From contig CAWHAE010000020.1 of NCBI GenBank assembly GCA_963827235.1, forward strand, positions 192,001-256,000: 64,000 bases of DNA, written 5' to 3'. This DNA comes from an uncultured bacterium. Its GTDB lineage: Bacteria > Chloroflexota > UBA5177 > JANWHV01. The translations under genes and the position numbers were made by a program. Position 1 is the stretch's first letter. Every line of letters starts with the position of its first letter. The notes under the pieces were generated by a model. That model searched no databases. It had not been told where the DNA came from and saw nothing but the letters and a program-made list of their open reading frames with translations. Positions 7,027 through 49,426 of this stretch are shown here, piece by piece.

Positions 7027-7108
7027 TGGTGCCGGCGGTGGGAGTCGAACCCACACGGTTGCCCGAGCGATTTTAAGTCGCTTGCGTCTGCCATTCCGCC
7101 ACGCCGGC
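7027..7108 (-). tRNA. tRNA-Leu (anticodon TAA)
   Basis: GCCGGCGTGGCGGAATGGCAGACGC...GACTTAAAATC...GTTCGACTCCCACCGCCGGCACCA; type II variable arm; CCA encoded. Confidence 0.97.
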
Positions 7109-12872: not shown

Positions 12873-12947
12873 TGGAGGCGACGGTCGGAATCGAACCGAC
12901 GATAGGGGTTTTGCAGACCCCCGCCTTAACCACTTGGCGACGTCGCC
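12873..12947 (-). tRNA. tRNA-Cys (anticodon GCA)
   Basis: GGCGACGTCGCCAAGTGGTTAAGGC...CTGCAAA...GTTCGATTCCGACCGTCGCCTCCA. Confidence 0.97.
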
Positions 12948-27036: not shown

Positions 27037-27111
27037 TGGAGCGGAAGACCGGGATCGAACCGGCGACCCTCTCCTTGGCAAGGAGATGCTCTACCACTGA
27101 GCCACTTCCGC
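27037..27111 (-). tRNA. tRNA-Gly (anticodon GCC)
   Basis: GCGGAAGTGGCTCAGTGGTAGAGC...TTGCCAA...GTTCGATCCCGGTCTTCCGCTCCA. Confidence 0.97.
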
Positions 27112-27115
27112 ATCG

Positions 27116-27191
27116 TGGTGCCGAGACCCAGATTTGAACTGGGGACACCCGCATTTTCAGTGCGGTGCTCTACCAACTGAGCTATCTCGGC
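27116..27191 (-). tRNA. tRNA-Phe (anticodon GAA)
   Basis: GCCGAGATAGCTCAGTTGGTAGAGC...CTGAAAA...GTTCAAATCTGGGTCTCGGCACCA. Confidence 0.97.
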
Positions 27192-45727: not shown

Positions 45728-47206
45728 ATGGTGCCCCGATGTCAGCGCCCGGTCCGCCGTGTCCTGCTGTGTTTGGCCTCTACCGCGATCCTTGCTGCCG
45801 CTCTACTGCCGGGTCCCGGCGCCTCCGCGGCCCAGGTGCCCCGCCCCGGGCGCGCGTTCCGGTCGCTCTCGCTGATCTACCCCGGTTCGCAGGTAATGTC
45901 TGTTGACTACCAGACTTCCGCCGCACCCGCGCTGCCGCGCGAAGCAGTAGCATCGGCCATGGCGCCGGACGGCCGGGCTCGCCACGGTACGACTACGACC
46001 ATCGGGCTATCCCGAAGCGGTGACGGGATCAGGCTGAATGCCGCCACGCCTATCGCTACCGGGCCGGCTGCCGGCGCATCGCCCACGCCAATCGTCACGC
46101 ATTATTCTCTTGCCGCTGCCTGGCCCATGGCCGGGCACGACCCGGGACAAAGCTTCGCCGACGTGCTGGGCAGCGTCGTTCCCGGTGCCGTTCCGCTACT
46201 GCACCTTCGCTGGCAGGCCCAGGGGTTGGTGCCGCAGATCGAGGCGGGGGGTCTCCTCTATGCGATCAACGCTAACTCGCAGGTCGAGTCGTTGGACGCG
46301 GCCGGAGGCACCGTGGGCCGCACCTATCAGTCGCCGGGAGTCGTGGGCCTGGCCTACCAGGCACCCTATCTCTACGTGAACAGGTCTTCTGAGATTCGCA
46401 TCGTCGATGCGGCGACGGCGGGCTGGTCGAATTCCGCCACCGATTCTGTGGGAGATGCTACGCCCACGTTCTCTTCGCTGATCGTGAGTGGGCGGCAGAT
46501 CTTTACTGGATCCGGCCCTGCTTCGCCCACCTCGCTGGCCAGTTTCTACTCTTTCGACGCTCAGTCGGGCAACAAGTTGTGGCAGCATCCCGGCAGCTTC
46601 ACGTCTACGCCGTGCCTGGCATACGGCACGTTGTACGTGAGTTACGGACCCTTCGGCAGCATGGACACATACGTGATTGATGCGGCGAACGGCTTTCAGT
46701 TCCGCGAGTTCAAGAAGCTCGGCGCAATCCAGTGGAATGCGGCGGGTGACAGGGTGTATGCCAGCGTCCTGTCCGGGCCGCCCGATCGTCTGCGCGCCTC
46801 GGTACGGGCATACGATCGTTTCGGTAAGCCACGGTGGGTCGCTCATAACATCCTGTTCGGCGCTGCCCTGCCCGAGATGATGTTTGGCATAGCGCCCGGC
46901 GGTGTGGACGCGCGCAGCGCTCTCGATGGGCACCGGTTGTGGCGAACCGATCTGCCGGGGCTGAACGCGATCTCGTCTGGCACGGTGGCGGTTTCCGGTG
47001 ACCTTATCGTCGTGCAGGCGGACGACGGAGTGCTCCGGCTGCTCGATCGCGACACAGGGCTACTCGTCCGCACGCTGAAGCCTCCATTCGTGGCCACGTT
47101 GGCGCGCAACCTCCTAGTCGGTGGCGGGATCATCTTCGAGAGCGTGACCCCCGTGCATCCGGGAGGGAAGGCCGGGCCAGCCACCCTGCTTGCCTTTGGT
47201 CCTTGA
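45728..47206 (+). CDS. Secreted PQQ-like (BamB-type) beta-propeller protein
   Basis: Signal peptide; WPMAGHDP; repeated xDAxxGxxxW blades (FDAQSGNKLW, ALDGHRLW, LDRDTG); AAGGAG RBS. Confidence 0.75.
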   Translation: MVPRCQRPVRRVLLCLASTAILAAALLPGPGASAAQVPRPGRAFRSLSLIYPGSQVMSVDYQTSAAPALPREAVASAMAPDGRARHGTTTTIGLSRSGDGIRLNAATPIATGPAAGASPTPIVTHYSLAAAWPMAGHDPGQSFADVLGSVVPGAVPLLHLRWQAQGLVPQIEAGGLLYAINANSQVESLDAAGGTVGRTYQSPGVVGLAYQAPYLYVNRSSEIRIVDAATAGWSNSATDSVGDATPTFSSLIVSGRQIFTGSGPASPTSLASFYSFDAQSGNKLWQHPGSFTSTPCLAYGTLYVSYGPFGSMDTYVIDAANGFQFREFKKLGAIQWNAAGDRVYASVLSGPPDRLRASVRAYDRFGKPRWVAHNILFGAALPEMMFGIAPGGVDARSALDGHRLWRTDLPGLNAISSGTVAVSGDLIVVQADDGVLRLLDRDTGLLVRTLKPPFVATLARNLLVGGGIIFESVTPVHPGGKAGPATLLAFGP

Positions 47207-47465
47207 CGTCCGTCGAGTAGCCTGGCGCCGGGCAGTGCCCGCCGGGCGTGCCGGTCGATGGAGTTCCGCGCGGGAGGCTCGCGCACTGGCACAGGGTGCC
47301 TGCTGCCGGCGTGACAACTGTAACTAAATCCGCATGATAATGCGCTCACGAGCATACTCATGCATCGGTGACGTATCGCACCGTCACTCGACGGTGCCGC
47401 AATTGTGGCGCCGGGCTGAGCAGAAAAGGCGACCGGAATTGCTACGTCCGTGCGCGCCAAGGGCC

Positions 47466-47494
47466 TTGACATGTGAAAAATGGAGGCGTAGCAT
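47466..47494 (+). promoter_or_regulatory. Near-consensus sigma70 promoter with no long ORF downstream
   Basis: TTGACA (47466-47471)-N17-TAGCAT (47489-47494); predicted +1 near 47501. Confidence 0.8.
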
Positions 47495-47500
47495 GACCTT

Positions 47501-47748
47501 AGTGCGAGGGCATCCGGAGGCTGACAGCCTCCTATCCACCGCCTGGAAAGGAGACTTCCTATGTATAGTTTGAGGAAGCCGCACCTTTTCTTCGGAGTCC
47601 TTCAGGTCGACTAGCACCTGCTCGGCCGGACGGTAGTAGCTAGGAACAAGCTCGCCGAAACGTGTCGAGGGCGAAAGCAGGATTCCACCCACGGGCCGGT
47701 CATCGGTCCAACGCCGGCGTTACGAATAGGCCCTTGAGCCTTTGCACT
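47501..47748 (+). ncRNA. Structured non-coding RNA candidate, about 250 nt (6S/Ms1-like or novel)
   Basis: Begins at the predicted +1; 5' AGTGCGAGGGC pairs with GCCTTTGCACT (47738-47748); internal stems GGAGGCT/AGCCTCC, CTTCCT/AGGAAG, AAAGG/CCTTT, GGAGTCC/GGATTCC, CAGGT/ACCTG, GGGCCGG/TCGGTCC. Confidence 0.6.
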
Positions 47749-47848
47749 TTCGATCGACGCAGGCAGCGATGAATTCGTACTGGTGATCGGCCCCCGTTCT
47801 GCACTGTGTGAGGTGTTAGCAAAACAAGCACACGAGCAAGCGGTAGGT

Positions 47849-47890
47849 AAAAGTAAACGAGAGGGAGTCGTGTGCGCGACTCCCTCTCGT
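47849..47890 (-). terminator. Intrinsic terminator of the PRTase gene (hairpin may act in both directions)
   Basis: ACGAGAGGGAGTCG...CGACTCCCTCTCGT 14-bp stem, followed by TTACTTTT on the minus strand. Confidence 0.85.
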
Positions 47891-47917
47891 CATGTACTCA
47901 GCACGCGAAGACGCGCC

Positions 47918-48388
47918 TCAGCGTTCTCGATCCCACGGATAGACGAGCCAATCGTCGGTGGCCTCGGCGTAGAAGTCTGGGTGTTCGTTGTTGTACCGCG
48001 AACGACCGGGCTTGAAGTGCAGCACGGCCACCTTGTAGTGGCACCTCACTGCGTCCAGGCGCTCTTTCACCGCCATGATCGTGCGCCCGCTATCCCATAC
48101 GTCGTCCACTACGAGCACGCGCTTCCCGGCCAGCAATGTGTCGGTAGGAAACTGAAGGAAGATCGGGGTGTCGAGCGTCTGGTCGACGTCGGTGTAGTAG
48201 ACAACCGCGGCGACCAGAATGTTCCGCAGGTCGATCTTCTCGCTGATCAGGCAGCCCGGCACCATGCCCCCTCGAGTGATGACCAGCATGGCCTCATAGG
48301 TGTCGGACAGATACGTCCTGATCAGGTGATCGACCAGACGTTGAATCTCCTCCCAGCTAAGTAGCCGCTTGACCAGTGTCTTCTCCAT
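47918..48388 (-). CDS. Purine phosphoribosyltransferase (Gpt-like type I PRTase)
   Basis: ITRGGMVP, VLVVDDVWDSGRT PRPP loop, WLVYPW. Confidence 0.9.
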   Translation of the reverse strand: MEKTLVKRLLSWEEIQRLVDHLIRTYLSDTYEAMLVITRGGMVPGCLISEKIDLRNILVAAVVYYTDVDQTLDTPIFLQFPTDTLLAGKRVLVVDDVWDSGRTIMAVKERLDAVRCHYKVAVLHFKPGRSRYNNEHPDFYAEATDDWLVYPWDRER

Positions 48389-48391
48389 ACG

Positions 48392-48958
48392 TTACGGCAA
48401 TCCCCTGATAATTGGCGTCGGCGAGGGGCCGGCGGAGCGTGTCGTGACCGTGGGCTCTCCGGCTGGCCCGGACTTGCGCCGGATCTGGTCGATCGCGTTC
48501 TGGAACTCCACGGCACCGTTGTCGATCTGGCTGGACGCGCGCTGAACTTCCGTCCGGCTGCTGGTGCGCAGACCGAGCACCAGTGTGTTCGTGCCAACCG
48601 AGAGATCGGTCAAGCTCTTGACGAAGAGCTTGGCTGTTGCCTTCACCTCCGCCGGGATCGGCGTAGTCTGCTGGAATCGCACCAGCTCGCCCGAGAACTC
48701 GTCCGCCGTCTTCGATACCCCGGTAACATCGTTCCTCTGTATGGAGTTGCCGAGGTTGTTGAGCGAGGCGATAGTGTCGGTCACTATCGGCAAGATGCGG
48801 CCCTGCCAGACGAGGACCGCCGTCGATTGGTTGTAGCTCGCGGACGTGCCACCGGCCCGTGGAGCCTGGGCGTAGACTCGCACACTGCCGGCTGCGAACC
48901 CAACGACGCTGGCGGCTACGAGACAGCGTGCCAGGCGCGAACGTAGAACGGTGTTCAT
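48392..48958 (-). CDS. Secreted alpha-helical hypothetical protein
   Basis: GGAGGAG RBS; signal peptide ending VYA; amphipathic helices; 3 nt from the PRTase start. Confidence 0.7.
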   Translation of the reverse strand: MNTVLRSRLARCLVAASVVGFAAGSVRVYAQAPRAGGTSASYNQSTAVLVWQGRILPIVTDTIASLNNLGNSIQRNDVTGVSKTADEFSGELVRFQQTTPIPAEVKATAKLFVKSLTDLSVGTNTLVLGLRTSSRTEVQRASSQIDNGAVEFQNAIDQIRRKSGPAGEPTVTTRSAGPSPTPIIRGLP

Positions 48959-49426
48959 GGCTCCTCCACCGGCTGAGTGGGCAAACGTCGGAGCGATCGT
49001 AACAGCAGCCATCGGCTATGTCAAAATGACTCGCGTGGTGGCTGTGTGCCTTAGTGTACGGTAGCAGGCCTATTCCTGCCAGCGCCATCGCACGCAAATG
49101 TGCTGCTGCGACCCGGAACTTCATTGGCGAAGTGCGCGGAGGGCAACGTGGCCGCTACTCCGGGTACGACGGGCATCCTGGGGTCGGTCGTCATCGTGCC
49201 CGACCCTTCGCTCACCCCGACGCACCGGCTCCCGGGACCGTGGCCATCTCGCCCGCTCGCCGGTCACCACGAGGTGGCGAGCCGCCGAACGTCCCGCCAC
49301 TTCGCGGATCCTGCCGCGGACGGTATGGTCGCCGTCGGCCGCCCAACCCGGCGCCCGCGTCGTGTCGTATGGTATAACGGTGACGAGGCGCAAGCCGGGA
49401 GTGATCATGATCGGGAGGGCACGCCT

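Follow-up and report, generated by a model that had tools for sequence, protein, structure and literature searches.

The window, a stretch of 64,000 nucleotides from an uncultured Chloroflexota bacterium, contains an intergenic gap of 711 bp (47207-47917) flanked by convergent genes, in agreement with the gap of about 700 bp that a first-pass annotation, made from the sequence alone, had described. Within this gap we find the signals of a separate transcription unit, including a reading frame of 17 codons:

Left flank of the gap, + strand: BamB/PQQ_2-like ORF, 494 aa
47466-47494, + strand: sigma-70-type promoter, with -35 TTGACA (47466-47471), a 17-nt spacer and -10 TAGCAT (47489-47494)
47550-47553, + strand: Shine-Dalgarno (SD) sequence GGAG, 7 nt before the ATG; invariant in alignment A5
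47555-47559, + strand: CUUCC, downstream of the SD; its TTCC is invariant in alignment A5
47561-47611, + strand: 17-codon ORF, MYSLRKPHLFFGVLQVD, with a TAG stop at 47612-47614
47856-47891: GC-rich terminator hairpin of 15 bp, common to the RNA and the convergent phosphoribosyltransferase gene
Right flank of the gap, - strand: phosphoribosyltransferase, 156 aa, convergent with the gap RNA

The phosphoribosyltransferase is only xanthine-PRTase-like (68.8 bits against a cut-off of 138). Directly 5′ of it lies a 206-aa ORF (48392-49012, - strand) without a Pfam or NCBIfam family. The phosphoribosyltransferase gene is convergent downstream of the RNA at the window locus and at L002, and likewise, as judged by eye from its conserved 3′ end, at L003-L005 and L046-L048; the neighbours of the paralogues described below are unrelated (a fatty-acid desaturase, and ORFs without a family). 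In the window and in the syntenic loci the next gene is convergent. No same-strand gene lies downstream of the RNA in the three genomic contexts examined, and the RNA is therefore not the leader of any gene. The first-pass annotation, in stating that the RNA precedes no gene, overlooked the SD and the 17-codon ORF within the RNA itself (47550-47614).

The promoter had been recognized in the first-pass annotation as TTGACA-N17-TAGCAT, and we confirm it at 47466-47494. It scores 10 of 12 consensus matches and predicts a transcription start near 47501; two promoter-like sites were found in 1.1 kb, where shuffles predict 0.2. The part conserved in the nearest relative begins about 7 nt before the -35 element (window 47459). 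Predicted promoters are present in all 15 copies of the element that we collected (see below), the one in L057 (TTGACT/TAGGAC) having been read by eye, as it gave no match to the search pattern; each of the 14 copies checked for it has a promoter of this form 66-70 nt before the ATG (84 nt in L048). At the other end, the terminator of the window copy has a T-run on the - strand only, and in L005 (1850-84) and L007 (1873-1908) a + strand terminator with a T-run is found at an equal distance, so that the interval between predicted start and terminator is also about 390 nt in both. We therefore predict a transcription unit of about 390 nt that begins near 47501 and ends with the terminator hairpin (47856-47891). 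The size of about 250 nt proposed earlier is not upheld, and the 3′ end placed at 47748 was wrong: it falls within the covarying domain at 47693-47793, beyond which the predicted unit continues to the terminator.

Words of the stretch occur in 24 public sequencing runs. Of these, 22 are metatranscriptomes, produced in 14 studies and labelled as soil, peat or wetland; the habitat labels rest on the small share of the words present in each run. Four RNA runs from four studies were compared with the stretch at a likeness of at least 80%. They contain contigs of relatives that are only 323-361 nt long, reach word depths of 134-599 and show a likeness of about 88% over 287-292 nt. Those of greatest length span 47514-47800 and 47509-47800, one of them adding 44 nt of diverged 3′ sequence; none of the contigs from the four runs gives cover before 47509 or after 47813, which alone is not evidence of ends. 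Since these are contigs of relatives and not reads, strand, true ends and level are not readable from them, and an origin from DNA is possible. Their cover, found in four metatranscriptomes and never extending into the flanks, fits a discrete, abundant transcript that would begin at the predicted start and stop shortly before the terminator. Motifs and relatives' contigs together indicate, indirectly, a promoter and a terminator of the RNA's own and a discrete transcript.

BLASTN with 47440-47800 as a query against 61 related genomes gave matches in five, namely the window's own genome and all four other species of its genus, whose matches exhaust the set, the 56 genomes of other genera giving none. 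The window's own genome has two more copies, making three paralogues there. The core common to the BLASTN homologues consists of GGAG, an ATG 7 nt later and 17 codons; the closed rod of the first-pass annotation is not part of it. Searches with patterns derived from the peptide extended the set. A degenerate C-terminal pattern, run on one genome each of 185,579 species, hit 37 loci, of which three were true, all of them duplicates of known loci in three species of the genus; the remaining 34 were in-frame matches by chance, mostly inside larger reading frames, and a match in Flavobacterium ended at a stop but was without a start codon. A stricter pattern returned seven loci from a metagenome collection, all seven real, and 3, 2, 1, 1 and 1 copies from the five genomes of the genus. 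When up to three mismatches were allowed in all 21 genomes of the class, five matched, again from the genus only, and viral contigs gave no match. The distinct copies total 15. Within the searches made, the copies are restricted to one genus of uncultured soil Chloroflexota and its soil and peat metagenomic relatives.

The window's own assembly (G000) is 8.0 Mb long, 95.9% complete and with 9.06% contamination, against 4.4-5.4 Mb for the four congeners, and part of it may come from a second strain or organism. Its three copies are divergent paralogue types; a second genome, G001, also has two types, so that the paralogy does not rest on the G000 assembly alone.

The 17-codon ORF is, from its alignment, the most conserved part of the RNA and bears a coding pattern of substitution. 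SD and ATG are kept in 15 of 15 copies, and the 51 nt of the ORF contain no indels in the 14 aligned copies; the leader and the 3′ region are rich in indels. The copies follow the pattern M-Y-x-x-[RG]-K-[PL]-x-[LV]-x-[FY]-G-V-[LF]-Q-[VI]-D, with M1, Y2, K6, G12, V13, Q15 and D17 invariant. Variable columns number 9, 4 and 13 of 16 each at the first, second and third codon positions, and pairwise synonymous to nonsynonymous changes stand at 385:336 in frame versus 131:583 and 17:685 out of frame. Because 8 of the 15 copies had been found with a pattern in which several first and second positions of codons are fixed, which inflates synonymy, we repeated the count on the seven copies found by BLASTN only. 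The result was 82:92 in frame versus 35:136 and 7:157, with codon positions again at 9, 4 and 13. The peptide is conserved among paralogues whose 3′ regions neither align nor match one covariance model (CM). These patterns indicate that the ORF is under purifying selection at the protein level, although helices of the RNA that overlap it (CUUCC/GGAAG and AGGAAGCCG/CGGAGUCCU) could explain part of its conservation. The RNA is not simply non-coding, because of this strongly conserved 17-amino-acid gene inside it.

The peptide has a short hydrophobic core between R-K and D. Pfam and NCBIfam contain nothing for it, scanned as extensions of 20-22 residues. The stop codon stands at codon 18 in 10 of the 15 copies and at codon 20 in four, which add two codons after D17; its identity varies. 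It is lost in the remaining copy, L051, a metagenome contig with GGT at codon 18, whose frame continues to 60 residues through the hairpin P3 described below; the copy may be decaying, the extension may be tolerated, or the sequence may contain an error. Readthrough of the stop was considered and rejected, since the frame downstream of it extends over 46 open codons in the window copy but over only 8 in L046 (by eye). A further variant of the peptide, beginning MYAHGKPQALFG, is found at the diverging end of an RNA-library contig.

Comparison of the homologues revealed the following elements of RNA structure:

47504-47542, + strand: 5′ UTR hairpin domain, outer pairs GCG/CGC (47504-47506 with 47540-47542)
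47516-47522 with 47526-47532, + strand: P1, GGAGGCU/AGCCUCC, 94% paired
47621-47669, + strand: P3, a long irregular hairpin beginning 6 nt after the stop; apical loop AGGAACA in this subgroup
47693-47793, + strand: 3′ three-way-junction domain (P4, P4b, P5, P6)
47695-47707 with 47779-47791, + strand: P4, a long-range helix of 13 bp, extendable by 2 bp
47713-47720 with 47757-47764, + strand: P4b, enclosed by P4
47728-47741, + strand: P5, hairpin AGGC-CCUUGA-GCCU, enclosed by P4
47766-47778, + strand: P6, hairpin GCGA/UCGU, enclosed by P4
47808-47816, + strand: GUGAGGUGU, an unpaired-looking conserved block between the 3′ domain and the terminator

From 12 copies RNAalifold predicted 44 pairs, of which 16 carry compensatory changes. 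On this 12-copy alignment a curated model, comprising P0, P1, CUUCC/GGAAG, P4, P4b, P5 and P6 (44 pairs), is paired in 86.3% of the cells, compared with 37-44% when the 3′ partners are slid, and has 19 pairs with changes on both sides. In none of 500 shuffles did the pairing, the compensatory counts or the covariation score come up to those observed. Support is best for P4, with 10 of its 13 pairs changed on both sides; in P1 this is true of four of the seven (AU to CG and CG to UA exchanges, in either direction), and P5 is independently backed by longer, compensated stems in L005, L007 and L051 (by eye). Covariation in the alignment thus supports the predicted 5′ hairpin and 3′ three-way-junction domain.

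A CM of the 3′ domain (R1) gives ten copies scores of 64-107 bits; for the window copy the values are 101.8 bits on the + strand and 11.3 bits on the - strand. In the 61 related genomes its matches are in the genus only. It finds no match in the group L006/L045/L057 or in L048, and the 3′ domain has therefore diverged among paralogue groups and is not family-wide in the R1 form. A second CM, of leader and ORF (R2), gives 114-134 bits for all eight copies of the genus. Three R2 matches outside the genus, at 17-19 bits, all lie within long open reading frames, one of which we take to be DnaE-like, and were read as chance. The block GUGAGGUGU is exact in L001, L002 and L005, with variants in L046, L049, L007 and L051 in the alignment. 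By our own reading of minimum free energy (MFE) folds, 12 of 14 copies have a hairpin comparable to P3 that begins 0-7 nt downstream of the stop. The sequences of these hairpins are unrelated (CUCGGC/GUCGAG in the window, CUCGAU/AUCGAG in L046, CCCACCGGU/ACCGGUCGGG in L005), and their z-scores lie between +0.69 and -4.14; eight of the 14 are -1.79 or lower, and the window copy has -0.70.

The start region is also predicted to be folded. The SD has an unpaired probability of 0.10-0.52, compared with a mean of 0.30-0.38 for the whole RNA, and the AUG is often in a loop. CUUCC has two possible partners, the SD and the GGAAG in codons 5-6 (47574-47578). The helix with GGAAG is 95% paired, but four of its five pairs never vary; a helix sequestering the SD, GGAAAGG/CCUUUUC, is 84.7% paired without covariation support, and 80.6% paired when slid by +1. 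Since these helices are compatible with all copies but hardly vary or fail the controls, sequestration of the SD is a prediction.

The first-pass annotation had arranged the RNA differently, as a rod closed by 11 bp between 47501-47511 and 47738-47748. This stem is present in the MFE fold of the window sequence (47496-47760 folded alone), but the fold is no better than shuffles (z of -1.05 on the + strand and -0.33 on the - strand), and such an ordinary energy means that the single sequence proves nothing either way. In the 12 homologues the closing stem pairs in 63.8% of the cells and is not conserved: in its outer half, five of the six pairs fail in 7-9 of the 12 copies and the sixth in 3 of 12 (with two gaps); of its inner six, five are paired in 10-12 copies and the sixth in 6. 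The inner pairs use the 3′ strand of P5 and are thus mutually exclusive with it. Because P5 is independently supported and excludes the closing stem, the latter would be at best an alternative conformer in one subgroup. The nested pairs CCTAT/ATAGG and GGAGTCC/GGATTCC, 70% and 80% paired, could be confirmed neither beyond chance nor as conserved, and the three helices together are paired in 69.9% of the cells of the 12 sequences. What stands of the class assigned earlier is a stand-alone, promoter-driven and structured RNA with covarying helices in its homologues (the 19 pairs changed on both sides) and without an Rfam match; what does not stand is its purely non-coding nature.

Rfam 15 at gathering score found in the whole window only its rRNAs and tRNAs. 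These form a complete rRNA operon on the - strand (58297-63426; 16S 61934-63426, 23S 58543-61549, 5S 58297-58414) with a spacer tRNA at 61743-61816 (-), and further tRNAs lie at 27040-27191, 12876-12947 and 7030-7108. At E≤10, the region 47150-47950 gave no real family, only four chance matches to microRNA models. tmRNA combines a tRNA-like domain with a tag ORF that lacks an SD and a start codon. The ORF described here, unlike that tag ORF, has both SD and ATG; the tmRNA model (RF00023) has no match at the RNA locus and finds the tmRNA of this genome elsewhere, with 166.5 bits. In the excerpts of the literature available to us the peptide strings occur in no paper, and there is no relevant description of a structured RNA or small ORF from Chloroflexi or Chloroflexota; the Chloroflexota passage of one preprint (10.64898/2026.10.21.760802) concerns tandem-repeat arrays. 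With no described RNA or protein family matching it, the RNA appears to be an undescribed family.

The alignments show two apparent layers of selection, one on the sequence of the peptide and one on the RNA fold around and after the ORF. On balance we favour the reading that the RNA is a small-protein mRNA or a dual-function small RNA (sRNA), to which we give somewhat better than an even chance. A strong housekeeping-type promoter is followed in order by a structured leader of 60 nt, the SD, the ORF, a long hairpin after the stop, the three-way junction and the terminator. Translation of the ORF is predicted, although the SD, mostly paired in the predicted folds, speaks against it; the 17-residue peptide would be the selected product. 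The SD/CUUCC/GGAAG region and P3 at the stop probably limit or time translation, and the folded 3′ domain and terminator probably make the transcript long-lived; the 3′ domain may, in addition, act at the RNA level in a second way, for example by binding proteins or by base pairing. Three points are inferred from these patterns: translation of the ORF, the peptide as effector and the role of the 3′ domain.

The same order of elements could also serve a translation-sensing riboregulator, in which the ORF is a sensor rather than an effector and the fold is switched by the ribosome. A ribosome pausing or terminating at codons 11-17 would cover the base of P3, and segments of the CGAGGGC type would be freed to re-pair with the P5 region and switch the fold of the 3′ domain, its stability or its activity. 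The conservation of the peptide is strongest in its last seven residues (F/Y-G-V-L/F-Q-V/I-D) and at K6, and C-terminal conservation of this kind is known from nascent-peptide arrest sequences such as SecM and TnaC. P3 abuts the stop in 12 of 14 copies; as it starts 6 nt after the stop in the window, a ribosome that pauses or terminates there would open it. By eye, both strands of P5 are complementary to GAGGGC-like segments, which lie at the 5′ end and directly downstream of P3, and the inner six pairs of the closing stem, with the counts given above, exclude P5. As in leader-peptide and arrest leaders (trpL, ermCL, tnaC), a short conserved ORF is followed by a strong hairpin, and the position of the ribosome could refold the RNA. 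Unlike those leaders, however, the RNA has no same-strand downstream gene in the three contexts examined and hence no identifiable output, continues for about 280 nt of structured RNA before its terminator and contains no run of a single regulatory codon; four copies have two extra codons after D17, the identity of the stop codon varies, and the alternative pairings are without covariation support of their own. We regard a sensor as possible but unlikely. In its fuller form, that of a translation-gated riboregulator in which translation of an arrest-type ORF opens the stop-abutting hairpin and switches the three-way junction between two folds, we consider it quite doubtful; such an RNA would report the status of ribosomes or charged tRNAs without a downstream gene and would constitute an abundant class of soil-bacterial RNA.

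Two other readings are less likely still. A purely non-coding trans-acting RNA with an incidental ORF, binding RNA polymerase as 6S and Ms1 do or binding another protein, would agree with the apparent abundance in RNA libraries, the strong promoter of its own, the stand-alone position and the covarying structure. The 6S model (RF00013) also finds no 6S in the whole 8.0-Mb assembly, and nothing thus shows that another RNA of the genome has a 6S-like role, a point in favour of the first-pass annotation, although the search is weak, the same model detecting 6S in only 5 of 14 control genomes. 6S RNA is closed by a long end-to-end helix into a rod with a central bubble, binds the RNA polymerase holoenzyme and templates product RNAs. 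The present RNA gives no match to RF00013 (at gathering score in the window or at E≤10 in 47150-47950), has no conserved closing helix and no rod with a central bubble, and its supported fold is a string of local domains, so that the proposed 6S/Ms1-like anatomy fails; its length of about 390 nt and its three divergent paralogues per genome are also unlike 6S. The frame-specific synonymous change and the absence of indels in the ORF also conflict with this reading, which we consider improbable. A type I toxin-like module, that is, a stable folded mRNA for a small toxic peptide silenced by its fold and by an antisense RNA, would account for the several intergenic, stand-alone copies (3, 2, 1, 1 and 1 per genome) and for the sequestered SD of the predicted folds. 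The mRNAs of hok or ibs type are of similar size and heavily folded, and those of hok, ibs and ldr likewise encode tiny peptides from folded, probably stable transcripts with several chromosomal copies. Against this, a scan of four copies, limited to the sigma-70 consensus, found no promoter-like site on the - strand in any of them, no copy was found on viral contigs, and the peptide has only about nine consecutive hydrophobic or neutral residues between R-K and D; its short core and polar character appear unsuited to a membrane helix, unlike the toxins. We consider a toxin module very improbable.

Returning to the small-protein mRNA or dual-function sRNA, known examples of the latter are SgrS/SgrT, RNAIII/delta-haemolysin, SR1/SR1P and Spot 42/SpfP. 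Like these, the RNA is a promoter-to-terminator unit of a few hundred nucleotides with a short ORF and its SD inside a conserved fold, and both RNA structure and peptide are apparently under selection. It differs in having no sequence or structure homology to SgrS/SgrT, RNAIII, SR1 or Spot 42 (no Rfam match), in the position of the ORF 5′ of a much larger structured 3′ domain and in its three paralogues per genome. The RNA is, on this comparison, a new family of a known general kind, the closest kind being a dual-function sRNA or small-protein mRNA.

The reach of the family is limited for now, because its distribution is narrow (one genus). It would add to an uncultured lineage of soil and peat Chloroflexota an unrecorded RNA family, which appears highly represented in metatranscriptomes, and a family of 17-residue micropeptides. 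The ORF and the covarying fold, locked together, offer a clean case for studying a small protein and riboregulation in one transcript. To our knowledge, conserved ORFs this short are invisible to gene callers, and intergenic gaps called "non-coding" should be checked for mini-ORFs with an SD and an ATG.

A second promoter-like pair is seen within the leader (47520-47553), formed by CTGACA in the P1 loop and TAGAA(A/T) just before the SD. It scores 10 of 12 in the paralogue L006 (1513-1541) and is weaker in the window copy, which has TGGAAA; a transcript from it is predicted to start just upstream of the ATG and would be a nearly leaderless mRNA.
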